This document shows positions 5,472 to 62,906 of a stretch of DNA of 64,000 nt, piece after piece. Position 1 is the first letter of the stretch. Every line of letters begins with the position of its first letter. The notes below the pieces were generated by a model that searched no databases, was not told the DNA's origin, and saw only the letters and a program-made list of their open reading frames with translations. Both the position numbers and the translations under genes were made by a program. The stretch lies in assembly GCF_964204645.1 (NCBI RefSeq), contig NC_134025.1, forward strand, positions 12,772,001 to 12,836,000, given 5' to 3'. The DNA comes from Tubulanus polymorphus (taxonomy: Eukaryota; Animalia; Nemertea).

Positions 5472-5637
5472 TTTTCAATTAGGATCGGTTATGACATTAA
5501 TTTCTACTGGTGTCATAACATTTTTGAACATCAAGCCTATGGAATATAAATCAGGTAAGAACGAAACAGATGTACTACAACCAAACGTCGAAACAGAAAA
5601 TGAATCAGAACAAAAATTAACTAAAATAAATGAGTGA
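5472..5637 (+). pseudogene. 3' remnant of the 202-aa hypothetical protein (intact at 56137-56745)
   Basis: FQLGSVMTLISTGVI...EQKLTKINE matches the C-terminus of the copy C ORF. Confidence 0.85.
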
Positions 5638-5998
5638 TGGCGTTAAGAAAAAGGCTAGATCAGAGAAACAAATTAAATGGGCAAGAGAATTAGGTAAAAG
5701 ATCTTCAGAATTAAAAAAAGCTAAGAAAAAGAAATTAACTGATATAAATGAATCACAGACTTTATCTGATAATGATTCAAATAATAATCCATCTGATTCT
5801 TCTAATGCTGGAAGTAATTATAAATTATATATTACAATTGGATTAGTAACAGTTATTATATTATCCGGTGTAATATATAAATCAAAATTCAAATCTGATG
5901 ATAAAGATGATTCCAATGACAATAAACCTATCATACCAGAAAATAAGTCAAATCATAAAGTCATTGAAACTAAATCTAAATTATTATTAATGGATTAA
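5630..5998 (+). CDS. Basic protein with one predicted TM helix (viral hypothetical)
   Basis: Lys/Arg-rich N-terminus and hydrophobic LYITIGLVTVIILSGVIY; homologues at 56738 and 44572. Confidence 0.75.
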   Translation: MSDGVKKKARSEKQIKWARELGKRSSELKKAKKKKLTDINESQTLSDNDSNNNPSDSSNAGSNYKLYITIGLVTVIILSGVIYKSKFKSDDKDDSNDNKPIIPENKSNHKVIETKSKLLLMD

Positions 5999-6004
5999 AA
6001 GAAG

Positions 6005-6980
6005 ATGAAAAAAGAACAATATCTGAGAGATTTATATTATAACCCAGAAAGTGAAGTATCATATTCTAACGTTTCAGAATTATGGAATAAAATTAAATCT
6101 GATAATGAAAATGGTGATATAAAATATAGTGAATTAAAATCATGGTTACAAAATCAACCAACATATCAAATCCACAAGAAAATGGATAAAACTTATTTAA
6201 CAAAAAAAGTTATGGTTTCATATATTGATCAACAATGGCAAGCTGATTTAATTGACATGAAGAACTTAGAAAAATACAACAAAGGATATTTCTGGATATT
6301 GAATGTTATAGACATATTCAGTCGATACGCATGGTCAATTCCAATCAAAAATAAAACTGGAATAGAAGTTACAAATGCTTTTAAGAATATATTTAAAGAA
6401 GCTATTGCAGATAAGATACAATTTGATGAAGGTAAGGAATTCTATAACAAACATTTTAAAAAACTATTATCTGATAACGATGTAGAATATTTTTCAACAC
6501 ACTCAGATAAAAAAGCATCTATTATAGAAAGATTTAATAAAACATTGAAATCTAGAATGTGGAAATATAATTCGGAAATAGTTTGGAATAATTTATATGG
6601 AGCGTTTGTTACACATGATTTCGGTGAACCTAGATTCAAAATTGGACAACACGTTAGAATATCTAAATATAGAAAAACCTTTTATAAAGGTTATACCCCT
6701 AATTTTACTGAAGAAATATTTAAAATTTAAAGTACAATATTAACTTAACCTTTTGTTTATAAATTAGAAGATCTAAAAGATGATGAAATATTAGGTTATT
6801 TCTATGAACAAGAATTATCACTTGTACCAAATCCAGATGAAATAGAATACAAAATAGAAAAAGTATTGAAAACAAAAACTCTTAAAGGAAAAAAGTATTC
6901 TTTGGTGAAATATAAAGGATATGATGATAAATTTAATGAATGGATTTTATCTAGTAAAATTAAAAAAATAAATGAATATA
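6005..6980 (+). pseudogene. rve (DDE) integrase with C-terminal chromodomain, disrupted
   Basis: QWQADLIDM, VIDIFSRYAW, QFDEGKEF and IERFNKTLK motifs; 39-codon deletion relative to copy C and a premature stop at 6730. Confidence 0.92.
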
Positions 6981-7583
6981 GATTTATGTATATTTGAACC
7001 GCATAATATGTTAGTTACTGGAGTAACAAACTGTGGTAAAACACATTTCATATTAGATTTGTTAGAAACTATTTATAAGAATCATTTTGATAATATAATA
7101 TTATTCTGCCCTACTTATGAAATGAATAAAACATATAATAGAGATATAGTTAAGATAAAAAAGTTTATTATATTAAATCCTAAAACAGTAAAAGAAAATT
7201 TAGATAATTGTATTAAAATAGCAATTGATACTTATAAAGGATCAAATACATTATTCATTGTAGATGATTGCGCTAATTTACATGATTCAAAAGTGAGAGA
7301 AAGTGAGTTATGTTATTTAGCTTTCTCTGGAAGACATTTTGGGATAACAACATGGGTTTTAAATCAAAAATATAATTCAATTGTTAAAGACTTTAGGGAG
7401 AATATAAGATTTCTAGTTTTATTTTATAACAAAGATAGAAAATCTATGCAACAATCATTGGAAGAAAATCAAATTATACCTACTGAATTACATTATGAAT
7501 ATATGAATAAATTAAAGAATAATAAAGGTTCAAAATTATTACTGAGATTACAATTTCCCTATGAATATAAATTTATAAAATAA
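6972..7583 (+). CDS. A32/FtsK-HerA-type genome packaging ATPase
   Basis: Walker A GVTNCGKT, Walker B FIVDD, downstream GRHFG and Q motif typical of A32-like ATPases; ORF is intact. Confidence 0.9.
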   Translation: MNIDLCIFEPHNMLVTGVTNCGKTHFILDLLETIYKNHFDNIILFCPTYEMNKTYNRDIVKIKKFIILNPKTVKENLDNCIKIAIDTYKGSNTLFIVDDCANLHDSKVRESELCYLAFSGRHFGITTWVLNQKYNSIVKDFRENIRFLVLFYNKDRKSMQQSLEENQIIPTELHYEYMNKLKNNKGSKLLLRLQFPYEYKFIK

Positions 7584-7594
7584 CTATTTGTATA

Positions 7595-7915
7595 CCTATG
7601 TATTAGATACCCTAATACCTGATACCCCATTAGATACCTTAAATACTTAAAACCCCCTTTTTTAAAATAAATATTTTTTATACAATTTTCAACCAATTTA
7701 TTTTTATTTTTTCAACTAATATATGAATAAGTTTGAAAATAATAAAGGTTATTTATTATTACTGAGGTTTCAATATAAATTTAAAAAAGAAATATAATTT
7801 AAGGTATTTTCAAATAATATGTATTAGATATGTATTAGATACCCTATTAGATACCTTAAATACTAAAAACCCCTTTTTTATTTACTATTATTTTATACAA
7901 TTTTCAACTAATATT
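7595..7915. repeat. Duplicated TATTAGATACC...AAAACCCCC-T-run unit between convergent genes
   Basis: Two imperfect units (~7600-7720, ~7820-7915); same arrangement in copy C at ~58935-59270. Confidence 0.65.
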
Positions 7916-7943
7916 ATTATTTGAGTTAAATATAATTAATATC

Positions 7944-8551
7944 TTAATCACTTTCATCATCACTCTCCAATTCACTATCAGACCCTAACAATTTATTCAA
8001 ATTCTCTACCGATATTTCTCCTTCAAATTCTCTATTATTTTTATACTTATTTTTCACCTTTTTTACCGCATCATCAATAGTTGTTTCATTGTTATGCTTA
8101 TTCATCCAATCAAATTTATCATTATTTTCTACTTTATGTTTCATAGAATCTTTATTAGTGTTTGCTCCTAATATTTCATTTACAGTGTTTGATCCTAATA
8201 TTTCATTAGCATCGGTTAGATCTAATTCACTTTATTAGGTGTTGCTAATAATAAATCTTCATATATTTTTTCACCATTTACTTTTTGATTTGAAACAAAC
8301 TTTGTAACATATCTAAATGGGTGTTCTATAAATTCTTTTAAACCAACACGTTCTATAACATTATTTATATGTACCCTTGTATTCATATGTTTATTCCAAT
8401 TTGATGTAGCGTCTATTAGTTTAGTTTTATAAATTTTGAAAATAGGATCAAATATCAAAGCTATATTACAAGGTATTACATAATATAAGCCATCATTATT
8501 TGCATGTGTATCGATGTATGGAATATGTTTATATACTTTACCTCCTTCCAT
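7944..8551 (-). pseudogene. Disrupted homologue of the 263-aa hypothetical protein at 59299-60090
   Basis: Two ORF pieces (8222-8551, 7944-8144) match the N- and C-termini of the copy C protein; internal deletion and frameshift. Confidence 0.85.
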
Positions 8552-8583
8552 TTATTATATAAATTTTTATTAAAGTTAAAATT

Positions 8584-9833
8584 TTAATACATAACACTAT
8601 TTAATTGAGAATTTACAATATTTAATTGCGCGTCAGATATAATATAAATGTGCATTTTGAAATTTTTGATTCCTTTATTCTTTGTCATGAATAATTGTAT
8701 TCCATCTTTAGTGTTTTGTAATTTTATTTTCCAGAACCATGTAATGAATTATCCTCTGTTGTTCTAAAATCTAACCATAATGCATACTTATTACCGGTAT
8801 AATAATCAATTTGATTAATATTACAATTTTCAGATGATTTTACTTTTTCATTCATAAAATGTTTTCTAATTTCTGGCCATTGATCTATCATTCTCATTCC
8901 TTGACAAAATATTTTATTTGCTATTCCTTCGATAGTTATTTCTACTTTTGTTATTTCAGGATTATAATAATTATCAACATTTATTGCGCCATTAGTATAC
9001 GTTGCAATGGTAAAAAATATTAATATACCTTTAATAGATCTTCTTGGGAAGTTAATATTCTCATTAATAATTTCATCATTTGCATTAATAGTTACAGTTT
9101 TAAATTTATCAATATAATCATATAATAATGAAAATCCTTGATTGTATTGAGTTTGAATTATACTTGAAATATTTTCATCAGTTACTGTGTCATATTCTAA
9201 ACATATATTCGATAATTTATAACTCATATGTTTATTAACGCTAGATATTACATTTTCATTTACAGGAGCAAATGTTATTTCGAATATAACGTCTTCTTGA
9301 ATTGCGTATTTATATAAAGGTGCATTGTTATTTATCAATTCAAAGTCTAATGGAATTTTATATTTGCTTCCATATATACTTTTTATCAATTTATCTACAG
9401 CATTAGTTAATATTGCGCTATTAGCTTCTGATCTTAATTTATTTTGGTTTTCTGATTGGATGCCTTGAAATATCATATTATTTCTATTTTCTTTAGTTAA
9501 CCATAAATCTTTATAATGCATAAATAAATTATAATCATCTAATGAGAAAACTGTTTCTGGACCAATCTTTATAGTTAATTTTTTAATCAAATATCTTCCA
9601 ACATTATCAACAACATAATTATTATTATTACCGGTTACTTTTATATCGGCTGATAAATAAATACTATTTGGAACATAAAAAGTATTTTATGTTAATCGAG
9701 GAATTCTAACATATAAAGTTTCATCGGGATTAATATTAGAAGGGTTATGAGTAATTATATGATGTGATCTTTCTGCTTTAATAGCATTAGATATTCTATG
9801 ATTCTTAGAAGGATTGATATAACTCCCACTCAT
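8584..9833 (-). pseudogene. Probable double jelly-roll major capsid protein with premature stops
   Basis: Near-identical to the intact 415-aa ORF at 40625; size, beta-rich pattern and genomic context. The fold is inferred. Confidence 0.7.
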
Positions 9834-9853
9834 TTATTTAACAAAAAAATTAA

Positions 9854-11311
9854 TTATTTATTTTTGATCATGTTTACTAACCCAAAAATAATTGCACTTA
9901 CAACTGTAATTAAAAATAAAATAATATGTTCAGCAGCAAAGTTAATAATGTTTCCTGCAGATTTCAATATAAAACCAACAATTGATGCAATAACTCCTGG
10001 CAATGCTGCAGCAGATTTTTTAGATAGTTCCCATAAATATTTTGCTAATTTCTTTAAACCATCTTTAACTTTATCTTGTATAGAATTATTACCTGGGGGT
10101 TTATCTGGTTTATTTGGAGTAGGAGTAGATTTTAAAGCATTCGATATTGCTAAACCAATTGTTGTAAATAACATAGTTACAGCTGTTAGAATTGAAAGAA
10201 TTGTTATTCCTTCTAACAATAATAATAATTTTATTCTATCTTTCAATGATATTTTAGAATCTGGTTTTATCAACAAATCTTTAAAAATAACTTTTAATCT
10301 ATTAATATTATAATCATATGGTTTTAATAATAATTTAATTTCTTCTTTTTGTAATTCTATGTTATATTCTAAATCATCTTTTTCTTTTTCTAAATACGGA
10401 TTTCTTTTTTTAAATTCGATTTCTTCAATAACTTTATTATCTCTATCTAATTTTAGTTGTTCCGATTCTTTTCTTGATTTAAATAATTCATCTTCTAAAG
10501 TTCTAATTTTTAAATCTCTTATACTTTTATCATGCGCAATTTTATCAGATGCAAGTCTTATACTAATAATTTCTCTAATTGCTTCATCAGAAAATATATT
10601 ATTTAAATCTTCTAATTGTTGATCTGTTGCATCAATTAATCCATTCGGTAAAAGTTTTTCAATTGGAACTTTATTTGATTTAAGTTTACTAGTTTTGGAA
10701 GTTTTATTCTGTTCAGAAGTTGTTTCTGTTTCTGGATTATCATCGATTATTTTAAATAAGTCATCAATTCTTTCACTAAATACTCTTATATTATCATCTC
10801 TTTCTTCTTGTGTAACATCAGTTATTTCATTACTAATACTTATTCTTTTAATTTTATCTGGTTCTAATTTTCTCAAAGTTGATTCCGCTAATATTTTATT
10901 TAGTTTTGTCTTTTGATTAGTGATATCAATATAATAATCATCTTTCAATTTATAATAATATTCACCATCTAAATATTTTAAATCTTCTACTAAAAATCTG
11001 GCACCTCTGTAATTTATATTATATCCAGATCTTTCAAATGCACGTTGGAACTTTTATATAAATTCTTTATTTTCTAAATCTCGACTCGATAAACCTTGAT
11101 TTTCATTTTCAGGACGTATTCTCGATCTAGTTCTTCTATCAAATTCATCTGTTGATGGGGCTTTAGAACCACTATCTGCAAAATTAGAATTATATGCTGA
11201 TTCATTACCATCATCAATATTAGTTTCTGCATCATTATAATCATCATCAATATATCCTTCATTATTATTTCCCATTTCTCCCATTTCATAATCTTCCCCG
11301 CCTTCTGCCAT
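9854..11311 (-). pseudogene. Acidic N-terminus/coiled-coil/multi-TM protein with internal stop
   Basis: ORFs 11054-11311 and 9854-10948 are in frame and match the 483- and 490-aa ORFs of B and C. Confidence 0.85.
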
Positions 11312-11327
11312 TTACATAATAAAAAAA

Positions 11328-12470
11328 TTAAAATTTAAAATATAATATTCCTCCAATTACAATTCCTATACAAGTTATAGCTAATTTAGTATTTTCATGG
11401 GATTTATTATCATCATTTAGTTTATTTATATCATGTTGAATATCACCGTGTGGGTGCCATACGGCACCATTTTCAGTTTTAATATTTTCTGATGTATTGT
11501 AATCTTTTATTTTAGAATCATTATTTAATTTAATATTCTTAGTTTTAGTTTCTGTTGATTGAATGTGTTTTTTATTTTTTTCACCTTCCATTAAGTTTGG
11601 AGCAGTAATTATCTTTTTATTTATATCATTCAATCCAAATGAATTATTTATTGTTGCAGTTTTAATTAGATTATTATAACCAATTATATTTCCCATATTT
11701 AATACTAAATCATTAGAAATAATTAATAGTGATTTAACTACATAATTTTGATATCTTACAATGTTTTCTGGAATCGATCTATTTTTATCATTATGAATAG
11801 AATCTTCAAATAATACTTTGAATTGTTTCTGTGTATCAAATGATGTATTTAAATTTCCAATTATTGGGGATCTTGTTTCAACTTGCGCACCTAAAATACA
11901 TATCAAATAAGTTCTAATAGATTGATTTATTCTTTGTATACCTGATTTTGTAAAACCTTCATTATTTTCTAAAATGAAATAAACCCAACCATTATTGTTT
12001 TCTTGTTTTATATTATCATAAAATGTCGGTAATTTATTGAAATTTAATGTTTCTAAATCCTTAGTTTCTATTTTACCATAACCTAATTTATTACTATAGA
12101 TATTATACAAACTATTAGATGGTATGGGAAGTGCACAATATTCTGCAATCTTTTTAGGGCAAGGAAGTGATCTTATTGTTCCAATTTTTGTTCTAAAATC
12201 AGAATTATTTATATCTATATTAAATTCATCACAAATTTTATAAAACTTTGATAAATTAATATTATTATCTAATTCTTTAAAATACCTACATCCTGGTAAA
12301 GCGCACTCTAATTCATTTAATATTATTCTGATTTGAAAGTATGTATGAAATCTAAATAAACTTTGAATTAATTTATATTTAGAATTATTCAAATGATCAT
12401 TCCAACTAATTCCACATCCTGTCGTTGCGCAATAAACAGCAAAATTTAATTGGTTCTGCCAATACTTCAT
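11328..12470 (-). CDS. Conserved viral hypothetical protein with C-terminal TM anchor
   Basis: QLNFAVYCATTGCGIS motif, C-terminal LAITCIGIVIGGILYF; present in all three copies. Confidence 0.8.
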   Translation of the reverse strand: MKYWQNQLNFAVYCATTGCGISWNDHLNNSKYKLIQSLFRFHTYFQIRIILNELECALPGCRYFKELDNNINLSKFYKICDEFNIDINNSDFRTKIGTIRSLPCPKKIAEYCALPIPSNSLYNIYSNKLGYGKIETKDLETLNFNKLPTFYDNIKQENNNGWVYFILENNEGFTKSGIQRINQSIRTYLICILGAQVETRSPIIGNLNTSFDTQKQFKVLFEDSIHNDKNRSIPENIVRYQNYVVKSLLIISNDLVLNMGNIIGYNNLIKTATINNSFGLNDINKKIITAPNLMEGEKNKKHIQSTETKTKNIKLNNDSKIKDYNTSENIKTENGAVWHPHGDIQHDINKLNDDNKSHENTKLAITCIGIVIGGILYFKF

Positions 12471-12485
12471 ATTAGATTTTAATAA

Positions 12486-12710
12486 CTATTGTTTTTCATC
12501 TTTCAATTTTTTTAAATTAATTAAATATAGATGAAATATATTTTCCATCGTTGCATTAAAATTATTAGTTTCAGTAACATAAATTTCTAAATTAGTTAAT
12601 GAATCTAAAACTTCATTTCTATATGTAATATCTTTATTAAAATCTATTGCTGGAATATTATATTTAATTGATTTATTATATTGGAAAACTTTTGGAAAAC
12701 TATCTACCAT
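12486..12710 (-). CDS. 74-aa viral hypothetical protein
   Basis: T-run/TAAATG start; frameshifted homologue at 37753. Confidence 0.65.
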   Translation of the reverse strand: MVDSFPKVFQYNKSIKYNIPAIDFNKDITYRNEVLDSLTNLEIYVTETNNFNATMENIFHLYLINLKKLKDEKQ

Positions 12711-12726
12711 TTATTTAATTAAAAAA

Positions 12727-13161
12727 TTAATAATTTATTAATTCTTTTAAAAATTTATCTTGTTCTTCAACTGTTATATGACCATTTAAACTTATTATAT
12801 AATCTAGTGTATTCTTCAATTTATTAATTTCTTTTATATTAGTTTTAATTTTTTCTTTATTACTTTTTATATTTAATTTTGAACTTATACCAGTTAAAAC
12901 ACTTGAACTTAATCCTAATACACCAATTGATATAGCTAAAGGTGTTAATGGACTGAATATTGCTAGAAATGTTATTACAGAACTAATTGTAACCGAACCA
13001 CTGATAATAAGATAATATATAATTTTACTTTTTAAATATTTTTTCTTTTTAACTTTTAAGTCACTTTCAAATTTTAATATTTGTTTTTCTAAATATGTTT
13101 TTAATTTAGTTTTATTTATATCATGAGGAATAATATCAATATTATCAACTTTATCTTCCAT
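12727..13161 (-). CDS. 144-aa protein with two predicted TM helices
   Basis: Hydrophobic IIYYLIISGSVTISSVITFLAIF and LAISIGVLGLSSSVLTGI; near-identical to 37302-37736. Confidence 0.8.
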   Translation of the reverse strand: MEDKVDNIDIIPHDINKTKLKTYLEKQILKFESDLKVKKKKYLKSKIIYYLIISGSVTISSVITFLAIFSPLTPLAISIGVLGLSSSVLTGISSKLNIKSNKEKIKTNIKEINKLKNTLDYIISLNGHITVEEQDKFLKELINY

Positions 13162-13180
13162 TTATTTAGCAAAAAAATTA

Positions 13181-13603
13181 CTAATTAGTAAACTTATACG
13201 CCACAAATATAACAATAACTGTTCCACCTAAAATCCAAATTATTTCATATTTCTTCTGTTCATTACTTGGGGTATAATAATCTGATAATTTAGGTTTGTA
13301 TAGATGTAATTTTTCTTTATTTGTTACTGCGTTATATAAACTCATTGCATCATCAACTGATTGAAAATCTCTATGTGAAATCTTCGGATCATATAATTCT
13401 TTATTGATGTAATCCATATAGTTTTGTCGTTTTTCTCTATATTCTTCCGCTGCTTTATTGTATTTCTCTAATGCTAAGTTATGTCTTTTTTGTTGTGTTA
13501 ATGATCCATTTTTATCAATATGTTTAAATAAATAACCGCCACCAGTAAATGCTAAAGCGTTAACAATTGCCGATCCTATAATAGTTATAATTGCAGAAGC
13601 CAT
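13181..13603 (-). CDS. 140-aa protein with hydrophobic N- and C-termini
   Basis: MASAIITIIGSAIVNALAFTGGGYLF and IIWILGGTVIVIFVAY; homologue at 36860. Confidence 0.8.
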   Translation of the reverse strand: MASAIITIIGSAIVNALAFTGGGYLFKHIDKNGSLTQQKRHNLALEKYNKAAEEYREKRQNYMDYINKELYDPKISHRDFQSVDDAMSLYNAVTNKEKLHLYKPKLSDYYTPSNEQKKYEIIWILGGTVIVIFVAYKFTN

Positions 13604-13627
13604 TTATTTAGCAAAAAAATTATGCAT

Positions 13628-13849
13628 TTATATGGGAGGAATATATTTTTGTTTTTCCAAATAATCAATAGTTAAATTAGATAAAGTAACTGCTAATGTT
13701 AATATTAAAATATCATTTATATCAAATCTATCAACATTAACACTTCCCATTTTAAATACTTTTTTTAATACCATTGAATAACCAACAGTTCCAACTGATA
13801 GTAATGCTCCATTATATAATCCAGTTATTATCCACTTATTATCACTCAT
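13628..13849 (-). CDS. 73-aa hydrophobic protein
   Basis: Two hydrophobic stretches; 3' half repeated at 36715-36835. Confidence 0.7.
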   Translation of the reverse strand: MSDNKWIITGLYNGALLSVGTVGYSMVLKKVFKMGSVNVDRFDINDILILTLAVTLSNLTIDYLEKQKYIPPI

Positions 13850-14206
13850 TTATTTATCAAAAAAATTACTATCATCAAAATATTTAGTTAACTTATTTAT
13901 GATTAAATCAACATTTATTTCATTACTAGTTTCATTTGTATATATTTCAATTATTATTTTTTTAATATCATCGATGATAAAATCTTCATCTAATTCATAA
14001 AATCTTAAAGATTCTCTAATTAAATTAGTAATCTTTTCTACATTTAAAGTTTCTTTATCTATTGTTGTTTCATACTCAAATGTTGTTTCTATAGAAAATG
14101 TAATATTTTTGATATGTGTAATTACATCATTAATGTTAAATTTCATTTCTTTCTCATGTTTAAAATCAAACCCAAAACATATACTCGGTCCAACAGTTAT
14201 ATTCAT
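13850..14206 (-). CDS. 118-aa viral hypothetical protein
   Basis: T-run/TAAATG start; its stop codon abuts the next ATG. Confidence 0.65.
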   Translation of the reverse strand: MNITVGPSICFGFDFKHEKEMKFNINDVITHIKNITFSIETTFEYETTIDKETLNVEKITNLIRESLRFYELDEDFIIDDIKKIIIEIYTNETSNEINVDLIINKLTKYFDDSNFFDK

Positions 14207-14222
14207 TTATATAATGAAAAAA

Positions 14223-14978
14223 TTACTCTTTACATCTTATAACTAATTCATATATCACAGGAAAGTTATTCAAATCAATTAAATAACCATTATGATTTCT
14301 TATTTCTAATTTAAAATCATTGAAATGTGGAATACAAGGTTTGAAATCACATTGAGTTAAATTATAATTTATTTGAGTTCCAAATTGTTTAACATTTTTT
14401 AGCGGTAAAATATTTAGTATACTAGAACTACAAATTGTTTCTTTAGTTGCTTCGAAAGTTTTTGTAGGCTCGATTAAATTGCAATAAATATAAAAGTGTG
14501 TAAAAGGTATTATATTTGAGCTGCCTTCTGCGTTTCCAGTAACTGTAAGAGGTTTAATTCCTAACATTTTAGCCAGTGGTTTGTTTACCATAAATTTATG
14601 TTGTTCATTAGATATCTTTATTCTAATTTTATTAGTACTATCAATTTTATTAAATTTAATTTCAAATACACAAGTGCCCCCGATTTTCAACCGAGCTCTT
14701 CTATTAATTTCCTGCGCAAATGATTCTAAATTATATAATCCTGGTTTTAAAAATATATGAAACCATTTATCTTTATTTCTCATATAAATCATAAACCCTC
14801 TATGTTCAAAAGTTTTATCTGATATATTATAAAAATAATTACATAAACTTATATTAACTAATTTTAAATCTACACAATTCTTGAATTCTCTATCTAATTG
14901 TACTAGTAAATTATGAGATTTATAATTTGTAAGACTTCTAGAATCAACAAATATTCTGTATTCTTTTAATTCCGCCAT
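14223..14978 (-). CDS. Probable minor capsid (penton) protein, single jelly-roll
   Basis: 251 aa; N-terminal IFVDSR, PGLYN, FYIYCNLIE and C-terminal LEIRNHNGYLIDLNNFPVIYEL resemble Polinton/virophage minor capsid patterns. Confidence 0.72.
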   Translation of the reverse strand: MAELKEYRIFVDSRSLTNYKSHNLLVQLDREFKNCVDLKLVNISLCNYFYNISDKTFEHRGFMIYMRNKDKWFHIFLKPGLYNLESFAQEINRRARLKIGGTCVFEIKFNKIDSTNKIRIKISNEQHKFMVNKPLAKMLGIKPLTVTGNAEGSSNIIPFTHFYIYCNLIEPTKTFEATKETICSSSILNILPLKNVKQFGTQINYNLTQCDFKPCIPHFNDFKLEIRNHNGYLIDLNNFPVIYELVIRCKE

Positions 14979-14995
14979 TTATTTTACATATTTTC

Positions 14996-15348
14996 TTATT
15001 CGAAATCTATTTCATGGTGCCCTTTTTCATTCTTACCTTTGTATATGAAATAGAAATCTCCAGAACATAATTCTTCTAAATCTTCACTTGATAATCTATG
15101 AAATCTATCCGGTAAATATGTTCTGAATTTATACGTATTTCCTTTTAATCCTTCATATTCTAAGTGTATAACTAATTTATCTCCATAGTTATTAGTAACT
15201 GTAACAATATCTGTAATTAGATATTTCTTATGGATTGTCAATTCTGTTAATTTTTGAATTTATAATCTACAGATTTTACATTTTTGATATCTTTAATTCT
15301 ATCTAGAAATAATTTGTTGTTCTCACTGTGCGCTTGTTTACTCTCCAT
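14996..15348 (-). pseudogene. Small Polinton-associated protein, frameshifted; homologue of 44896-45222
   Basis: YGDKL...YLPDRF...LSSEDL...IYKGKNEKGHHEI aligns with YGEKV...FLPDKW...LSTEEL...IYHGKNEDGHHDL. Confidence 0.7.
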
Positions 15349-15377
15349 TTTAATAACATATTTTTATTAAAATTTGA

Positions 15378-20203: not shown

Positions 20204-20408
20204 TTTAATACTAAATTTTTTATTAAAATTGATTTTAGAAGTTCAATGATTTATATTTGCATTATTTCAATCACACTTTACTAACACTTTTAATGTTTAA
20301 AAATCTAACTCACACAAATATGAATATTGAAATAATGTTGTAAATATATACTTTTATATTGAATTATCTGTCAATTTAAATGTTATTCATCTATATGATT
20401 ATTTTAAG

Positions 20409-20821
20409 AGTAATAGGGGTAATGGGCTTTCAGGTTAAAGGTTGAATGGTCGAGCTCATTAAAAAACAAAACATTAAAAGTAATTTAAAACTATAATATA
20501 TTTTCATAACCGTGTGTATTTCAGTTGAATAATAGAATTATAATTATTATTAAAATATATTTGATTATATGAATTTGTGTATTGTAAATAAATCAATTGG
20601 TCGCGGAGTGGAGCGGTAGCGAAGTGGAGCGACCAATTGATTTAATACAATATGCTTTTTAAATTTAAATTATTGATATCTTAGAATAAATATTTAGTTA
20701 TAATATAAAATACACACGGTTTTGAAAATATATTATAGTTTTAAATTACTTTTAATGTTTTGTTTTTTTAATGAGCTCGACCCTTCGACCTTTGGCCTTA
20801 AAGCCCATTACCCCTATTACT
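20409..20821. repeat. 413-bp imperfect palindrome at the right terminus of copy A
   Basis: AGTAATAGGGGTAATGGGCTTT...AAAGCCCATTACCCCTATTACT; inner stem AAATCAATTGGTCGC/GCGACCAATTGATTT around a purine-rich loop. Confidence 0.92.
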
Positions 20822-39130: not shown

Positions 39131-39148
39131 ATTTTTTTTATTATATAA

Positions 39149-40600: not shown

Positions 40601-40624
40601 ATAATTAATTTTTTTGTTAAATAA

Positions 40625-41872: not shown

Positions 41873-41902
41873 AAATATAAAGTTAAAATTAAGGATATAT
41901 AA

Positions 41903-44005: not shown

Positions 44006-44033
44006 CATCACAACTAATTTTTTTGTTATATAA

Positions 44034-44775: not shown

Positions 44776-44895
44776 TTGAATATTAATTGAATATCTCACT
44801 ACTTTTGTCTATCTATGAGGAGCAATTAAATTGTCCAGATAAGTCATTTCGGATTCTAGATATTCATTATTTTTATTAATTTATTTTTTAAAAAT

Positions 44896-45222: not shown

Positions 45223-45606
45223 TTATTAGGAAAAGAAATTACTTGTGGTGATGAGTGGGGATTACTTCCCTTGTATGTAACAAACACGCTATTAACCGTT
45301 CTCACCCAAGCCTCACAGCATCTATTTATCTGGGCACAGTTGACACGCAATCACTGTACTACAGTAATAGCACACGCGTTAATAACCGTTATCAGTAGAG
45401 ACTCACTGTATCGATCTATCCACGCGCAGTTGTTGTTACGCGCACTCACTGTATATGTGTGTCACAGAGCAATCGTCCGTTCTCACTAGAGCCTAGTTGT
45501 GATGAGTGGTGTCTCATACTCAATTGAATTATTACTTTTGGTGATGAGTGGTGTCTCGTCCTCTCGTCCTCTGATCTGAAACCCCACTTTTCCTACTACT
45601 TATATT

Positions 45607-53562: not shown

Positions 53563-53831
53563 AGTAATAGGGATAATGGGCTTTCATACCAAAGGTCGAA
53601 AGGTCGAGCTCATAAAAAATGAAAAATATGAAAATAATAACAATTTCTATTTGAATTAGTAGCGAAACTCATATAAAATGAAAAATAATTCTCGCACACT
53701 CGAATTTATTTTTCATTTTATATGAGTTTCACTCCTAATTCAAATAGAAATTATTATTATTTTCATATTTTTCATTTTTTACTCACTAGCCCTTTCAACC
53801 GTTGATATGAAAGCCCATTACCCCTATTACT
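53563..53831. repeat. 269-bp imperfect palindrome at the left terminus of copy C
   Basis: AGTAATAGGGATAATGGGCTTTCATA...TATGAAAGCCCATTACCCCTATTACT; inner arms GAAACTCATATAAAATGAAAAATAA / TTATTTTTCATTTTATATGAGTTTC. Confidence 0.92.
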
Positions 53832-53911
53832 CTTAAAATATTCATATAAATGAATAACATTTAAATCATTGAACTTCTAAAATCAATTTTAATAAAAAAT
53901 TTAGTATTAAA

Positions 53912-54115
53912 ATGGAAGCAAATAAGTACTACTGCGCAACATGTAATATCAATATAGATAAATCCCAAAAAGCAAGACACAATAAAACTAAAACACATTT
54001 AGATAATAAATTGAAACTAGAATATTTACAGTTATATTCAGAACAGTTAACAAAGGCAAAGAAATCTATTGAATTATGGAATAATGATCCAAATAATGAA
54101 CAATACGTTGAGTAA
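53912..54115 (+). other. Chimeric mini-ORF: polB first zinc finger fused to the tail of the HNH gene
   Basis: MEANKYYC...KLKLEY matches the polB start (20203); LQLYSEQL...EQYVE matches the end of 55402-55857. Confidence 0.75.
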
Positions 54116-54265
54116 TTTGATATCAAGGATCCGATGTTTATACTAGAACATGATTCTATTTGAACCTATATACATTCTATGTAAAGAGCTATGGAATAAA
54201 TCTATAAATTCACAGCTGTTACAGCCGTTACTATGACGCCGAGACATTATGACTAATAATATTAC

Positions 54266-54425
54266 AAACGTGTAGAGAAAATTCTAGAAAGGTGTGCTGG
54301 AACTCTGAATAGAGATGACACGTCATAATCAGAAACGTGTAGAATATTCTAGAAAAGGCGCGCCGGAACCAGATGACGTGGAATAATCAACGACGTGTCA
54401 TTCTAGAAATCGCCCTGGAAATGAA
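54266..54425. promoter_or_regulatory. Triplicated ~65-bp unit with heat-shock-element and CRE/UPRE-like motifs
   Basis: GAAnnTTCnnGAA at 54277-54289 and 54342-54354, TTCTAGAA at 54401-54408, TGACGTGG at 54374-54381. Confidence 0.5.
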
Positions 54426-55182
54426 CAGACGTTGTAACATTGTGCTCAGGATATTCTATCTATCGAAACGAAATTAGGAGTTTATAGTTTACAATTATAA
54501 ATCTAAATGTAAGTACTGTTTTTTGTAGTTATTGGGGCTATTAAATATGAAACCTTTAGATATATTTAAGTGTATTTAGTATATCTTTTAGATGGCTAGA
54601 GTTGCCGCTAATATCTTTTAGATTAATAAAACGCCATACGCATCAAGAAGTGATAGAGAAACTCAAGATACTCTTTCTGACTGAGGAATCAACAGCAATG
54701 GATATCAAACCAATGGAAATTAGTACAAGAAACACAAGAATCACCAAAAGATCGAAGAAGAAATATAAGAATTTCAAAAACATTAAGACTCCAATGATTA
54801 AGTTTAACATTTGTTGATGTAGTTAAATATTTACCAGCAATTGAAAAAATGCTTGTAATTATAAATTGTATTTATAGAAATCAAATGATGTATTGGAAGA
54901 AATGACTGAACAACTTGTATAATGTATTGTGTAAATCTGTTTGGTGAATTTTTATGTTCGGTCGTTTCTATTTCTAGAATGAATATATAATTAGGATTAA
55001 CGCATGCGCATTAAGCAAAAGCGCGCACGAATGCGCGGTTTGCTCAGTGGTATTATTTAGATATAAAGGAATCGAAACAACTTATCAAAAGCAGCGAGGA
55101 ATGAAAAAGGATGACGTTGGTCGAAGAAATGGAAGAGGATTCTAAAATATTAACCAATTTAGTAAAAAAATACATATAATAA

Positions 55183-55857
55183 ATGGAACCAGAACAACCA
55201 CAAACTATAAATATTACAAATAACACTGGTGTTATAAATATATATTACAAGAAGTGTTCTAAATGTGAATTAGATAAATCATTAACAGAATTTAGTAAGC
55301 GTAAGATTAGCAAAGATGGTTTTCAATAATGCTGTAAAACTTGTTTTAAACTATATACCAAACAATACCGAGAAGATAATAGAGAAGCTTATAATGATTA
55401 TATGACAGAATATATTAGAGAAAGATATCAAACAGATCTTAATTTTAGATTGAAACAATGCTTAAGATCTAGATTAACACAATTATTCAACAAAGAAACA
55501 CATTCAGAAACACTATCTAATTTATTGGGTTGTTCAGATGAATTTCTCAAATCATGGATTATATTTCAATTCGATGATAAAATGAATATACATAATTATG
55601 GGGATTATTACCATATTGATCATACGTTACCAATATCTAAATTTAACATGAACGATGAATACAATAAAAAACTTATTTGGAATTGGAAGAATCTAAGACC
55701 TTTAGAAAAGAAGGAAAACATAATTAAATCTAATAAACTAGATTTACAGTTATATTTAGAACAGTTAACAAAGGCAAAGAAATTTATTGATCAATGGAAC
55801 AATGATCCAAATAATGAACAATACGTTGAGGAATTTGATATCAAGGATCCGAAATGA
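55183..55857 (+). pseudogene. HNH-type endonuclease with N-terminal CxxC pairs; one in-frame stop
   Basis: KKCSKC...CKTC, LLGCS, YHIDHTLPIS...NLRPL...EN..KSNK; TAA at 55327. Confidence 0.75.
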
Positions 55858-56136
55858 CTTATCTGGACAGTTATAATTACTGCTCCTAATAGATAAACAA
55901 AAGTAGTGAGATATCAAATAGATTTTAAATAAAAAGTGTTTAAAAAACAATAACTTCAACTAGCTTGTGAATTCTATTATATTTTTAATATTTTCTTTTC
56001 AAAAAAGAATACTTTATATCACAAATAAAAAATACTAAAAAAACAATAACTAATACTAAAATTCTTTACCTTTAACTAACTAGTATCATTTGAAGAATAC
56101 TTATTATATTTTTCTTATTAAATTTCTCTAATATAA

Positions 56137-56745
56137 ATGTCAAAGAAATCTAATAAGAATAGTATTGATATTGAAAAAACATTAGATGATTTAGGTATTA
56201 GTGATAATAAAGATACAGTTGTTTCTAATTCTATTCAAGTTAATAACAATATAGATTATGAATACTATTTATATTGTAAGCATCATCTAGAACTATTGAT
56301 TGCCGGTGGAAAAACTGATGAGTTTTTAAATAGAATCATTACTTTTCAAGAACTAGACTCTATGAAACCAGATAAAGTAATAAAATATTTTAAGATTTAT
56401 GAAGAGGCAAGATTAGCTAGAATAAATGATTCTATTTCAGATGGTATTGTCAAATGTTATTCTAAGTTATGTAACCAGTTAATACCAATTGATGATGAAA
56501 ATAAATTATATAGTGATTTGAAAAATGACTACTTAGTTATGACTGAATTACAAAAATGGGTTGGTTATGCTTCATTTCAATTAGGATCGGTTATGACATT
56601 AATTTCTACTGGTGTCATAAAATTTTCGAATATCAAGCCTATGGAATATAAATCAGGTAAGAACGAAACAGATGACGCTGTACTACAACCAAACAGCGAA
56701 ACAGAAAATGAATCAGAACAAAAATTAACTAAAATAAATGAGTGA
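56137..56745 (+). CDS. 202-aa viral hypothetical protein
   Basis: Intact; homologues at 44034 and 5472. Confidence 0.8.
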   Translation: MSKKSNKNSIDIEKTLDDLGISDNKDTVVSNSIQVNNNIDYEYYLYCKHHLELLIAGGKTDEFLNRIITFQELDSMKPDKVIKYFKIYEEARLARINDSISDGIVKCYSKLCNQLIPIDDENKLYSDLKNDYLVMTELQKWVGYASFQLGSVMTLISTGVIKFSNIKPMEYKSGKNETDDAVLQPNSETENESEQKLTKINE

Positions 56746-57193
56746 TAGCGTTAAGAAAAAGGCTAGATCCGAGAAACAAATTAAATGGGCAAGAGAATTA
56801 GGTAAAAGATCTTCAGAATTAAAAAAAGCTAAGAAAAATAAATTAACTGATATAGAGAAACAAATTATATGGGCAAGAGAATTATGTAAAAGATCTTCAG
56901 AATTAAAAAAAGCTAAGAAAAATAAATTAACTGATATAAATGAATCACAGACTTTATCTGATATTGATTCAAATAATAATCCATCTGATAGATTCAGCAC
57001 AGCTGAATCTCATAATTACTTATATATTACAATTGGGTTAATCACAATTATTATATTCTCCGGTGTAATATATAAATCAAAATTCAAATCTGATGATAAC
57101 AATAATGATTCCAATGACAACAAACCTATCATACCAAATAAGTCAAATGATAAAGTCATTGAAAATGAACCAAGATTAATATTAATGGATTAA
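56738..57193 (+). CDS. Basic TM protein with an internal tandem duplication
   Basis: EKQI.WAREL.KRSSELKKAKKNKLTDI occurs twice; homologue of 5630-5998. Confidence 0.78.
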   Translation: MSDSVKKKARSEKQIKWARELGKRSSELKKAKKNKLTDIEKQIIWARELCKRSSELKKAKKNKLTDINESQTLSDIDSNNNPSDRFSTAESHNYLYITIGLITIIIFSGVIYKSKFKSDDNNNDSNDNKPIIPNKSNDKVIENEPRLILMD

Positions 57194-57199
57194 AATAAG

Positions 57200-58312
57200 A
57201 TGAAAAAAGAACAATATTTAAGAGAGTTATATTATAACCCAGAAAGTGAAGTATCATATTCTAACGTTTCAGAATTATGGAATAAAATTGAATCTGATAA
57301 TAGTGATGGTGCCGTATGGCACCCACATGGTGGTATAAAGTAAAGTGAATTAAAATCATGGTTACAAAATCAACCAACATATCAAATTCACAAGAAAATG
57401 GATAAAACTTATTTAACAAGAAAAGTTATGGTTTCATATATCGATCAACAATGGCAAGCAGATTTAATTGACATGAAGAACTTAGAGGAATACAACAAAG
57501 GATATTTCTGGATACTGAATGTTATAGACATATTCAGTCGATACGCATGGTCAATTCCAATCAAAAGTAAAACTGGTATAGAAGTGACAAATGCTTTTAA
57601 ATCTATATTCAAAGAAGCTATTCCAGATAAGATACAATTTGATGAAGGTAAGGAATTTTATAACAAACATTTCAAAAAACTATTATCGGATAACGATGTA
57701 GATTATTTTTCAACACACTCAGATAAAAAAGCATCTATTATAGAAAGATTTAATAAAACATTGAAAACTAGAATGTGGAAATATTTTACTGCTAATGAAA
57801 CATATAAATATATCGATGTGTTAGATGATTTAGTGAAAGGTTATAATAATTCTAAACATAGTTCTATAAATATGAAACCTATACAAGCTAGAAAAGAAGA
57901 TAATTCGGAAATAGTTTGGAATAATTTATATGGAGCGTTTGTTACACATGATTTCGGTGAACCTAAATTTAAAAATGGACAACACGTAAGAATATCTAAA
58001 TATAGAAAAACATTTTATAAAGGTTATACCCCTAATTTTACTGAAGAAATATTCAAGATTAAAAAGATAATATTAACTAAACCTTTTGTTTATAAACTAG
58101 AAGATATAAAAGATGAAGAAATATTAGGTTATTTCTATGAACAAGAATTATCACTTGTACCAAATCCAGATGAAATAGAATACAAAATAGAAAAAGTATT
58201 GAAAACAAAAACTCTTAAAGGAAAAAAGTATTCTTTGGTGAAATATAAAGGATACGATGATAAATTTAATGAATGGATTTTATCTAGTAAAATTAAAAGA
58301 ATAAATGAATAA
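57200..58312 (+). pseudogene. rve integrase with chromodomain; in-frame stop at 57341
   Basis: Full DDE core and chromodomain in ORF 57398-58312; true start at 57200 by alignment with 6005. Confidence 0.92.
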
Positions 58313-58918
58313 AGATTTATTTATATTTGAACCGCATAATATGTTAGTTACTGGAGTAACAAACTGTGGTAAAACACACTTCATATTAGATTTGTTAGAA
58401 ACTATTTATAAGAATCATTTTGATAATATAATATTATTTTGTCCTACTTATGAAATGAATAAAACATATAATAGAGATATAGTTAAGATAAAAAAGTTTA
58501 TTATATTAGATCCTAAAACAGTAAAAGAAAATTTAGATAATTGTATAAAAATAGCAATTGATGCTTATAAAGGATCAAATACATTATTCATTGTAGATGA
58601 TTGCGCACAAATTAACATGATTCAAAAGTGAGAGAAAGTGAGTTATGTTATCTAGCTTTCTCTGGAAGACATTTTGGGATAACAACATGGGTTTTAAATC
58701 AAAAATATAATTCAATTGTTAAAGACTTTAGGGAGAATATAAGATTTCGAGTTTTATTTTATAACAAAGATAAAAAATCTATGCAACAATCATTGGAAGA
58801 AAATCAAATTATACCTACTGAATTATATGATGAATATATGAATAAATTAAAGAATAATAAAGGTTCAAAATTATTACTGAGACTACAATTTCCATATGGA
58901 TATAAATTTATAAAATAA
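58305..58918 (+). pseudogene. Packaging ATPase, frameshifted
   Basis: Two ORFs matching 6972-7583; frameshift just after the Walker B motif. Confidence 0.9.
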
Positions 58919-59298
58919 CTATTTGTACACCTATGTATTAGATACCCTATTCGATACCCTAATACCTGATACCCTATTAGATACCTTAAATACTTAAAAC
59001 CCCCTTTTTTAAATAAATATTATTTATACAATTTTCAACCAATTTATTTTTATTTTTTCAACTAATATATGAATAAGTTTGAAAATAATAAAGGTTATTT
59101 ATTATTACTGAGGTTTCAACATAAATTTAAAAAAGAAATATAACTTAAGGTATTTTCAAATAATATGTATTAGATATGTATTAGATATGTATTAGATACC
59201 TTAAATACCTTAAATACTTAAAACCCCCTTTTTTATTTGCTATTATTTTATACAATTTTCAACTAATATTATTATTTGAGTTAAATATAATTAATATC

Positions 59299-60090
59299 TT
59301 AATCACTTTCACTATCACTCTCCAATTCACTATCAGGCCCTAACAATTTATTCAAATGCTCTACCGAATCTACATCAATAGTTGTTTTATTTTTATACTT
59401 ATTCTTCACCCTTTTTACCGCATCATCAATAGTTGTTTCATTGTTATGCTTGTTCATCCAATCAAATTTATCATTATTTTCTACTTTATGTTTCATAGAA
59501 TCTTTATTAGTGTTTGCTCCCAATATTTCATTTACAGTGTTTGATCCTAATATTTCATTAGCATCAGTTAAATCTAATTCATCTTTATTAGGTGTTGATA
59601 ATAAAAAATCTTCATATAATTCTTTACCATTTACTTTTTTATTTGAAACAAACTTTGTAACATATCTAAATGGGTGTTCTATAAATTCTCTTAAACCAAC
59701 ACGTTCTATAACATTAGTAATATGTACCTTTGTATTCATATTTTTATTCCAATTTGATGGAGCGTTTGAAAATTCACCTTTACAATAATCACAATAATTT
59801 CTATTTTCACTAACATTTAATATTATTTCATTGTTAGATGTAGAAGGTATTACATTATTAGATGTAGTAGGTATTACTGTAGTAGGTATTACATTATTAT
59901 CAATTACATTACTTAAATTATCAACAACACCACTTTTATTATTATCGATTTCTATTAGTTTAGTTTTATATATTTTGAAAATAGGATCAAATATCAAAGC
60001 TATATTACAAGGTATTACATAATAAAAACCATCATTATTTTCATGTGTATCGATGTATGGAATATGTTTATATACTTTACCTCCTTCCAT
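59299..60090 (-). CDS. 263-aa hypothetical protein with short repeats, a degenerate zinc finger and an acidic tail
   Basis: Intact ORF; YCDYC...H; VIPT/S repeats; ends DSELESDSESD. Confidence 0.75.
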   Translation of the reverse strand: MEGGKVYKHIPYIDTHENNDGFYYVIPCNIALIFDPIFKIYKTKLIEIDNNKSGVVDNLSNVIDNNVIPTTVIPTTSNNVIPSTSNNEIILNVSENRNYCDYCKGEFSNAPSNWNKNMNTKVHITNVIERVGLREFIEHPFRYVTKFVSNKKVNGKELYEDFLLSTPNKDELDLTDANEILGSNTVNEILGANTNKDSMKHKVENNDKFDWMNKHNNETTIDDAVKRVKNKYKNKTTIDVDSVEHLNKLLGPDSELESDSESD

Positions 60091-60122
60091 TTAATATAAG
60101 ATTTTTTATTAAAGTTAAAATT

Positions 60123-61377
60123 TTAATACATAACACTATCTAATTGTGAATTTACAATATTTAATTGCGCGTCAGATATAATATAAATATGCATTTTGAA
60201 ATTTAGGCTTCCCTTTTTCTTTGTCATGAATAATTGTATTCCATCTTTAGTGTTTCGTAGTTTTTTTCCAGAACCATGTAATGAATTATCCTCTGTTGTT
60301 CTAAAATCTAACCATAATGCATATCTATTGCCGGTATAATAATCAATTTGATTAATATTACAATTTTCAGATGATTTCACTTTTTCATTCATAAGATGTT
60401 TTCTAATTTCTGGCCATTGATCTATCATTCTCATTCCTTGACAAAATATTTTATTTGCTATTCCTTCGATAGTTATTTCTACTTTTGTAATTTCAGGATT
60501 ATAATACTTACCAACCTGTATTGCACCATTTGCATTTAGAATATGTTGCAATGGTAAAAAATATTAATATACCTTTAATAGATCTGCTTGGGAAGTTAAT
60601 ATTCTCATTAATTATTTCATCATTTGCATTAATAGTTACAGTTTTAAATTTATCAATATAATCATATAATAATGAAAATCCTTGATTGTATTGAGTTTGA
60701 ATTATACTTGAAATATTTTCATCAGTTACTGTATCATATTCTAAACATATATTCGATAATTTATAACTCATATCTTTAACAACGCTAGATAATACAATTT
60801 CATTTACAGGAGCAAATGTTATCTCGAATATAATATCTTCTTGAATTGCATATTTATATAAAGGTGCATTATTATTTATCAATTCAAAGTCTAATGGAAT
60901 TTTATATTTGCTTCCATAAATCTTTTTTATCAAATTATCTGCGGTACGAGTTACTATTGCGTCATTAGCTCCTGATCTTAGTTTATTATGGTTTTCCGAT
61001 TGAATGCCCTGAAATATCATATTATTTCTATTTTCTTTAGTTAACCATAAATCTTTATAATGCATGAATAAATTATAATCATCTAATGAGAAAACTGTTT
61101 CTGGACCAATCTTTATTGTTAACTTTTTAATCAAATATCTTCCAACATTATCAACAACATAATTATTATTATTACCGATTACTTTTATATCAGCTGATAA
61201 ATAAATACTATTTGGAACGTAAAAAGTATTTTGTGTTAATCGAGGGATTCTAACGTATAAAGTTTCATCGGGATTAATATTTGAAGGATTATGAGTAATT
61301 ATATGATGTGATCTTTCTGCTTTAATAGCATTAGATATTCTATGATTCTTAGAAGGATTGATATAACTCCCACTCAT
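60123..61377 (-). pseudogene. Probable major capsid protein, frameshifted near 60535
   Basis: Two overlapping ORFs matching 40625-41872. Confidence 0.72.
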
Positions 61378-61417
61378 TTATTTAACAAAAAAATTAATTA
61401 TTTATTTTTTATCATGG

Positions 61418-62890
61418 TTACTTGATATTTTTTGATATCATATTCACTAATCCAAAAATAATAGCACTTACAACTGTAATTAAAAATAAAATAATATGTT
61501 CAGCAGCAAAGTTAATAATGTTTCCTGCAGATTTCAATATAAAACCAACAATTGATGCAATAATTCCTGGTAATGCTGCAGCAGATTTTTTAGATAGTTC
61601 CCATAAATATTTTGCTAATTTCTTTAAACCATCTTTAACTTTATCTTGTATAGAATTATTATCATTCGGGGGTTTATCCGGTTTATTGGGAGTAGGTGTA
61701 GATTTTAAAGCATTTGATATAGCTAAACCAATTGTTGTAAATAACATAGTTACAGCTGTTAGAATTGAAAGAATTGTTATTCCTTCTAATTTAAATAATA
61801 ATTTTATTCTATCTTTTAATGATATTTTAGAATCTGGTTTTATCAACAAATCTTTAAAAATAACTTTTAATCTATCAATATTATAATCATATGATTTTAA
61901 TAATAATTTAATTTCTTCTTTTTGTAATTCTATGTTATATTCTAAATCATCATTTTCTTTTTCTAAACGTAATTCTTTTTGCCTATATTCTATTTCATCA
62001 ATTACTTGATGATCTAAATCAGACTTTAATTGTTCTATTTCTTTATTTTTATCAGTTAATTCTTTTTCTAAAGTTCTAATTTTAAAATCTCTTATACTTT
62101 TATCATGCGCAATTTTATCAGATGCATGTCTTATACTAAAAATTTCTCTTATTGCTTTATCAGAAAATATATCTAAATCTTCTAATTCTTGATCTGTTGC
62201 ATCAAGTAATCCCTTCGGTAAAAGTTTTTCAGTTTGAACTTCGTTTGATTTAGGTTTACTAGTTTTGGAAGTTATATTCTGTTCGGAAGTTGTTTCTGTT
62301 TCTGGATTATCTTTGATTGTTTCAAATAATTTATTAATTCTTTGTTTAAATACTCTTACATTTTTATCAGTTAATTCTTGTGTTACATCTTCTATTTCAT
62401 TACTATTTCTTATTCTCTTAATTCTAGATAGGTCTAACCTAAGCAAAGTTGATTTTGCTAATATTTTGTCTTGAATTTTATAACAGATGTTAATATAATA
62501 ATCATCTTTCAATTTATAATAATATTCACCATCTAAAAACTTTAAATCTTGTACTAAAAGTCTGGCGCCTTTATCATTTATATTATATCCAGATTCTTTA
62601 AATACATGTTGAAAATCATACATAAATTCAATATTTTCTAAATTTTGTCTTACTAAATCTGGATTTTCATTTTCAGTAGGTATTCTCGATTTAGCTCCTC
62701 TAATATATTCATCTGTTGATGGGGCTTTAGAACCACTATCTTCTAAATTAGAATTATATGCTGATTCATCATCATTATCAATATTAGTTTCATAAAGATT
62801 AGCACCTGCATCATTATAATCATCATCAATATATCCTTCATCATTATTTCCCCCGTTTTCCAATGGAAAATCTTCTCCGACTTCTGCCAT
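61418..62890 (-). CDS. 490-aa acidic/coiled-coil/multi-TM protein
   Basis: Intact; homologue of 39149-40600. Confidence 0.85.
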   Translation of the reverse strand: MAEVGEDFPLENGGNNDEGYIDDDYNDAGANLYETNIDNDDESAYNSNLEDSGSKAPSTDEYIRGAKSRIPTENENPDLVRQNLENIEFMYDFQHVFKESGYNINDKGARLLVQDLKFLDGEYYYKLKDDYYINICYKIQDKILAKSTLLRLDLSRIKRIRNSNEIEDVTQELTDKNVRVFKQRINKLFETIKDNPETETTSEQNITSKTSKPKSNEVQTEKLLPKGLLDATDQELEDLDIFSDKAIREIFSIRHASDKIAHDKSIRDFKIRTLEKELTDKNKEIEQLKSDLDHQVIDEIEYRQKELRLEKENDDLEYNIELQKEEIKLLLKSYDYNIDRLKVIFKDLLIKPDSKISLKDRIKLLFKLEGITILSILTAVTMLFTTIGLAISNALKSTPTPNKPDKPPNDNNSIQDKVKDGLKKLAKYLWELSKKSAAALPGIIASIVGFILKSAGNIINFAAEHIILFLITVVSAIIFGLVNMISKNIK

Positions 62891-62906
62891 TTACATAATA
62901 AAAAAA

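Follow-up and report, generated by a model that had tools for sequence, protein, structure and literature searches.

The window analysed here, a stretch of 64,000 nucleotides of Tubulanus polymorphus DNA, contains three degraded copies (A, B, and C) of a Maverick/Polinton element with genes for pPolB, an rve integrase, an A32 ATPase, and a double-jelly-roll capsid protein. Most of these genes begin with TAAATG and, on comparison with related loci, this start motif is a real, lineage-specific promoter architecture and not an artefact of AT-richness. The element likely borrows its transcription machinery, since a motif of poxvirus type stands at most starts and is absent from the orthologues of most distant relatives. 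Transcription would likely fall to the polymerase of a co-infecting virus of pox-like, cytoplasmic type and not to host RNA polymerase II (Pol II), a reading to which we assign a probability of about 0.62. Dependence on a cytoplasmic helper of whatever kind is quite probable. The three copies are located as follows:

5473..20821: copy A, a degraded Polinton whose left part has been lost to a high-copy poly(A/T)-tailed repeat, with a terminal fold-back at its end
33413..45600: copy B, a Polinton with both ends, inside a 63-bp tandem repeat of a Helitron
53563..64000: copy C, a degraded Polinton that begins with a hairpin of ~130 bp and extends past the window end

A preliminary description of the window listed 28 gene starts reading TAAATG, and the motif is present at all 28, each time on the coding strand of its open reading frame (ORF). 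The start at 14978, described as a TAAAATG exception, actually reads TAAATG and is the 29th. Two further supposed exceptions, 12470 and 37982, are internal ATGs behind a frame break, and the real starts of these genes, 12710 and 37753, both carry TAAATG. The other exceptions are genuine: the integrase starts of A (6005) and C (57200), and three sites, 15348, 20203, and 53912, that read TAAAATG. With the two internal ATGs removed, the motif is found at 29 of 34 true gene starts and 5 deviate. Among the 36 starts as originally chosen, 29 have TAAATG. The remaining ATGs of the elements carry it in 69 of 1357 cases (p 3e-29), and those of the host flanks in 19 of 937. The copies are mutually 73–97% identical for the most part, and the fairer unit of count is therefore the 17 orthologous gene groups. 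Every copy has TAAATG in 14 of these groups, and at least one copy does in 16.

The run of six to eight T described ahead of TAAATG is separated from it by a spacer of 5–7 nt in all 14 starts that have a T-run. A run of at least six T is found upstream of 14/36 starts and of 0/69 non-start TAAATG. In 34.6 kb of element DNA there are 14 composites of T-run, spacer, and TAAATG, and in 26 kb of flank there are none, while 200 shuffles gave a mean of 1.1 and a maximum of 4. In the enrichment check proposed with the initial claim, TAAATG was thus enriched over the other ATGs and the composite over shuffled sequence. Gaps between tandem genes, put at 15–30 bp, measure 16–30 nt in 11 of 13 cases, and the other two are 0 nt.

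The sites fall into two classes, one with the T-run (T class) and one with an A-tract (A class):

40609..40627, + strand: T-class site (T7, 6 nt, TAAATG) of the capsid gene of B
39132..39151, + strand: T-class site (T8, 6 nt, TAAATG) of a 483-aa gene
44018..44036, + strand: T-class site ~400 nt past the nearest upstream stop
13601..13619, − strand: T-class site of a 140-aa gene of A
13159..13177, − strand: T-class site of a 144-aa gene of A
9831..9849, − strand: T-class site of the capsid gene of A
8549..8574, − strand: A-class site with a non-coding A-tract ~11–16 nt ahead of TAAATG (likewise at 60090 and in relatives L005 and L008)
20201..20228, − strand: A-class site with TAAAATG ahead of pPolB of A (the same at 53912)

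In the closest relatives, the T class is found at the capsid gene and its neighbours. The A class is found at the ATPase, at genes of 408 and 251 aa, and, in A and C, at pPolB. Over 73 starts from the two clades of relatives that carry the motif, the frequency of T is 0.68, 0.70, and 0.84 at positions −11, −10, and −9 from TAAAT, compared with 0.31–0.33 at the same positions in 112 non-start TAAATG. The site at 44018..44036 lies too far behind the preceding stop to be the terminator of that gene. Among 18 convergent gene ends in seven relatives, TTTTTNT stands behind just two. Based on these two observations, the T-run tracks the downstream start. It may have a second role as a terminator.

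The starts in the window had been picked by eye, and the test was therefore repeated mechanically on relatives, with the same result. The relatives, given here as L numbers, are the best 80 of 175 metagenome loci together with three genome loci, collected by capsid alignment. The capsid N-terminus is in view in 69 loci, two of which have no ATG in reach. The capsid start reads TAAATG in 13 of 14 loci with at least 51% identity, compared with 3 of 53 more distant loci. In the mechanical test, all ORFs with at least 100 codons were scored at their first ATG. TAAATG was found at 55/65 starts in clade 1, which was delimited by identity (50/61 without two near-duplicates), and at 12/12 in clade 2, which was delimited after its motif had been noticed. 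Outside these clades, it was found at 0/51 starts in a sister group and at 4/306 in the remainder (together 4/357). The near-complete relative L004 has TAAATG at 14 of 15 starts.

The core genes are common across the family, so that one and the same gene starts with TAAATG in certain clades and has a purine at −3 elsewhere. Purine is found at −3 in 9/61 and 0/15 starts of the motif clades and in 151/217 and 51/59 of the relatives' orthologues, in line with the earlier observation that TAAATG puts T at −3, against the Kozak purine preference. In 16 non-member loci below 40% GC, TAAATG is found at only 1/56 starts, and members with 40–44% GC still carry it (2/3 starts in L010, 3/4 in L011). Therefore, the motif is not an artefact of composition. 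Most starts also retain the motif in relatives that have only 33–75% capsid identity to the window and in which the DNA around it has diverged, which points to selection over a long time. In the capsid tree, the two motif clades have SH-aLRT supports of 99 and 100 and nest in a group of 28 rows that includes seven motif-less rows at an open fork. The tree is a quick search from which L003, L067, and L075 were left out on account of short matches, and it does not distinguish one gain followed by loss from two gains. Scans of IMG/VR with the capsid, the capsid alignment, and the ATPase gave no usable locus. A motif scan of the same database gave 23 single matches, with no locus enriched and at most two TAAATG starts in any.

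In vaccinia, late promoters consist of TAAAT, usually with the G of the start codon, and a conserved T 10 nt upstream, with a spacer of 5–7 nt, while intermediate promoters are without that T and are AT-rich further upstream (available text of PMC11980589 and PMC5294985). An entomopoxvirus study uses the same TAAATG consensus (PMC3061580). The elements share with these promoters TAAAT(G) over the start codon, a peak of T about 10 nt upstream, and the 5–7 nt spacer. The architecture had been described as vaccinia-late-like, and its initiator, T position, and spacer agree with the published form. Their second class is A-rich and without the T peak, as in the intermediate promoters. On the other hand, the A-tract of the elements lies nearer to the initiator than in vaccinia.

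The genes that define the elements are the following:

40625..41872, + strand: double-jelly-roll major capsid protein of B (predicted structure, pLDDT 89.6)
15378..20203, − strand: pPolB of A in several pieces, 29–59% identical to the pPolB of relatives
41903..43023, + strand: rve integrase with chromodomain, its frame broken in B (counterparts at 6005 in A and 57200–58312 in C)
43024..43632, + strand: A32-type packaging ATPase (PF04665, E 1e-11; also 6972 in A and 58305 in C)
37753..39130, + strand: conserved gene of ~440 aa with a frame break behind its start
14223..14978, − strand: 251-aa gene, candidate minor capsid protein
55183..55857, + strand: HNH-type endonuclease-like gene of C, broken (HNH match of the L005 homologue, E 0.0055)

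The capsid gene is broken in A (9833) and C (61377). The capsid model matches the fold of the PBCV-1 capsid (E 6e-17) and of the mavirus major capsid protein (E 4e-12). The latter is a fold match, with only 10–12% identity and a rank below giant-virus capsids. pPolB is broken in all three copies, and its orthologue in L023 matches PF03175 (E 7e-14). The integrase piece of C matches rve with E 2e-9. The 251-aa gene probably encodes a minor capsid protein, judging from its size and conservation, and the predicted structure of the 442-aa conserved protein (pLDDT 77) matched no known fold. The preliminary description had noted that the elements have no RNA polymerase, and family searches of ORFs from the window and relatives likewise found none. 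Neither RNA polymerase nor TBP was found among 36 window ORFs and in two sets, each of 25 ORFs, drawn from the window and from relatives, several of these ORFs being unannotated. The sole RNA polymerase row, with E 0.086, does not count as a match to a subunit, and TFIIB gave no match in the family searches of the same ORFs. No Pfam protease match indicating an adenain protease was found in the window or L004 ORFs, several of which lack annotation, all copies being incomplete.

The elements share with known Mavericks/Polintons, including adintoviruses (PMC8502044), the pPolB, rve integrase, A32/FtsK ATPase, double-jelly-roll capsid, terminal inverted repeats (TIRs), 6-bp target site duplication (TSD), and insertion into an animal-type genome. 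They differ in that their starts are of pox type and not Kozak-like, and in that the adenain protease was not detected. By comparison, mavirus, which has a pPolB and an rve integrase and integrates, shares the promoter of its helper (available text of PMC6723459), as do Sputnik and the Polinton-like virus (PLV) Gezel-14T (available text of 10.1101/2022.07.28.501842). Like the elements, these are small capsid-encoding dsDNA viruses with no RNA polymerase and with one helper-type motif before most genes. In contrast, their helpers are of Mimiviridae type in protists and their dependence is known from culture, whereas the elements have a pox-type motif and an animal host, and their dependence is putative. 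A helper-type promoter before most genes together with the lack of an RNA polymerase is found in the elements as a resemblance at the level of virus families. The label of virophage-like satellite given to them is partly supported by these two features, but the elements are placed here as Polintons and not as members of Maveriviricetes. Should helper dependence hold, a known class of element would follow the virophage-like strategy in a new form.

PLVs associated with insect poxviruses, which had been mentioned in the initial description, have indeed been published. AHEV_PLV1/2 and CBEV_PLV1, from entomopoxvirus occlusion bodies, are proposed poxvirus parasites linked to poxviruses by co-sequencing (available text of PMC11296320). 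They are Polinton-like and similar in size to the elements. On the other hand, they have a cysteine protease, an L2-mu-like protein, and a tyrosine recombinase or no integrase according to that text, whereas the elements have an rve integrase, and neither the protease nor the L2-mu-like gene was detected in them. The words "promoter" and "TAAAT" are absent from the text of PMC11296320 that was available, and "promoter" is absent from the available main texts of PMC8502044, 10.1101/2023.10.06.561300, 10.64898/2026.10.13.758929, and 10.1101/2024.03.23.586382, which cover adintoviruses and a coral polintovirus among others. A search of titles and abstracts, with most subscription literature outside its scope, found no report of pox-type promoters in Polintons. 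The published PLVs tied to entomopoxviruses belong to other lineages.

Based on these observations, we propose that a capsid-encoding Polinton lineage integrates into its host with genes that start at pox-type post-replicative promoter motifs. The integrated copies would be silent until a helper infects the cell. The late and intermediate factors of the helper would then read the T-class and A-class sites, and transcription would start within TAAAT and add a poly(A) leader. pPolB would copy the genome and the ATPase would package it. The integrase-carrying particles could insert new copies in the absence of a helper, as described for mavirus (available text of PMC6723459). The preliminary description had likewise proposed a satellite transcribed by a pox-like or other Nucleocytoviricota helper. 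This proposal is favoured by the motif position, the switch between lineages, the exclusion of AT-richness and stop coupling, and the absence of any RNA polymerase match, and the mechanism is suggested by the motif.

Several alternatives have been weighed. Composition would be the simplest, in that the elements have 21–25% GC, the starts at 43024 and 13849 lie directly behind a TAA stop, and many T-runs begin just past an upstream stop, as would poly-T terminators of the upstream gene. However, the AT-rich and GC-rich comparisons given above, together with the finding that the TAA of TAAATG is the stop of the upstream gene in only 2/73 starts, refute a composition or coupling artefact for TAAATG, and the T-run also occurs where no upstream gene is adjacent and is rare at convergent ends. 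An artefact is therefore very improbable. An autonomous nuclear element transcribed by Pol II, perhaps with an unrecognised factor of its own, and with a compact clade-specific promoter that resembles the pox type by convergence, would fit the integrase, the high copy number, and the several conserved ORFs without known function. But a start within TAAAT leaves nearly no 5′ leader, T at −3 replaces the purine of the relatives, and gaps of 16–30 nt leave little space for Pol II 3′-end and promoter signals. Also, there is no TBP or TFIIB match, and the likeness to poxviruses spans initiator, T position, and spacer jointly. We consider autonomy unlikely.

The yeast virus-like elements (VLEs) pGKL1/2 are protein-primed linear elements with a pPolB and are not known to have a capsid or integrase. 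They have a TAAAN initiator and poly(A) leaders, which the elements parallel in being protein-primed and in the type of initiator, but the VLEs have their own polymerase and capping enzyme and an early-type upstream element (available text of PMC6211774). They favour a helper other than a poxvirus, which could be another member of Pokkesviricetes (egovirus- or asfuvirus-like), an iridovirus, or a cytoplasmic VLE with a pox-related polymerase. TAAAT also occurs in a ranavirus promoter, and egoviruses are the sister group of poxviruses, in a source paper whose available text holds no promoter data. Against such a helper, TAAATG fused to the start with a T-run 5–7 nt upstream is the late form of vertebrate and insect poxviruses, and the late initiator of African swine fever virus (ASFV) is TATA (available text of PMC7163114). 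A non-pox helper is rather unlikely, slightly more so than autonomy. The motif could also be a relic of an ancestor that was a pox satellite, with present copies spread by other means and no longer in need of a helper. All three copies are degraded and some of their starts deviate, but the long selection on the motif in diverged relatives makes a relic improbable.

A number of points weigh against transcription by a pox-like helper. No helper sequence was found, and dependence on one is inferred from motifs. The family is abundant, which implies repeated access to the germline and would be simpler for an autonomous element. No gene has its best match in a poxvirus, and the homologues of the kinase of L004 are unnamed or generic. 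TAAAT-like initiators are not restricted to poxviruses, as the VLEs and the one ranavirus promoter illustrate. Orthologues agree in T or A class in 33/47 pairs compared with 18.5 expected (p 0.00025), which favours the proposal, but common ancestry inflates this test and the classes were set post hoc. The A-tract, ~11–16 nt before TAAAT, is nearer than in vaccinia, whose intermediate promoters have it at 15–19 nt. At the ATPase and a 130-aa gene, it lies inside the upstream ORF. The integrase is without the motif in A, C, and L008. Two further candidate pox signals were uninformative. Avoidance of AATAAA does not separate the motif clades from controls (102 observed and 104 expected in the window, 113 and 110 in AT-rich controls). 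Depletion of TTTTTNT (7 vs 16 and 14 vs 46) was rejected because it is part of a general depletion of homopolymers, in which A-runs are depleted too.

If the elements are indeed transcribed by a pox-like helper, host genomes could predict undiscovered poxviruses. The virophage strategy would then extend from the giant viruses of protists to germline-integrated elements of animals. With a fixed pox-type promoter, the mode of expression of animal Polintons becomes testable, as does their status as free viruses or as satellites.

The sister capsid group (L018, L019, L055, L065, and L067) has no TAAATG and instead has TATA at most 20 nt from the start at 24/34 starts. TATA near the start is found at 16/25 starts compared with 40/704 in two loci with 47–49% GC, and at 8/9 compared with 37/283 in three AT-rich loci. 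At this distance it is too near for a Pol II TATA box, and it resembles the late initiator of ASFV. AT-rich distant loci likewise have TATA near the start (28/59), which may be plain intergenic AT-richness. A broader and rather doubtful idea is that a widespread, high-copy family of animal Polintons are endogenous satellites of Pokkesviricetes, in which the start motif of each clade would name the helper, TAAATG being pox-like in two clades and TATA asfuvirus-like in the sister group. Unseen poxviruses would then be predicted in these hosts, along with a possible inherited defence of virophage type in animals.

The ends of copy B show the Polinton hallmarks, TIRs and a 6-bp TSD, while A and C each have one end in view:

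33407..33412, + strand: left 6-bp TSD of B (TATATT)
33413..33482, + strand: left TIR of B (inverted repeat of 75 nt, 96%)
45531..45600, − strand: right TIR of B
45601..45606, + strand: right 6-bp TSD of B

The first promoter of B, a short T-run with TAAATG at 33495–33500, adjoins the left TIR. The pPolB of B is interrupted near 35335 and followed by ~1.4 kb of unrelated DNA, and several genes are missing. The host site of B is a Helitron (27472–33412 and 45601–47130) with a PIF1 helicase, an endonuclease domain, and a DIETNPGP motif, which we take to be 2A-like. In a DNA run of 1.93 Gb with the same species label, summed read depth over A exceeds 200 in 24 of 27 bins and is mostly 300–1000. 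Assuming a genome of 0.5–2 Gb, the number of related copies would be somewhere between about a hundred and several hundred, and free viral DNA may contribute. A further run, presumed to be RNA, gave no coverage of A, which carries no information on expression.

The fold-backs at 53563–53830 (C) and 20409–20821 (A) show a terminal motif at both start and end, and have an identical inner junction and different loops. The ~130 bp terminal hairpin of C has −93 kcal/mol (z −21). The fold-backs may serve replication as terminal structures, or may represent a mini-element sitting at the end. In B, an array of 11-nt repeats fills 43629–44012, from the ATPase to the gene after it, and other repeats are found at the equivalent position in A and C. 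A non-coding stretch of 70–95 nt (55838–55933; L004 2449–2516) is 82–83% identical and common to C, B, and L004, each time behind a different gene, and is a possible cis-element. A small gene near the element end (L004 125–469, with a homologue in the window from 45222) has a weak Atlas lead to a phi29-type single-strand binding protein (score 0.87, with 44% of members carrying the family). The kinase of L004, a deoxynucleoside kinase at 10340–10981 (PF01712, E 2e-31), has a T-class promoter and is not found in the copies of the window. Capsid relatives with 55% identity in the P0045 cluster are filed as "Bartonella sp." on contigs of 0.5–1.6 kb and are probably contamination from a host animal.

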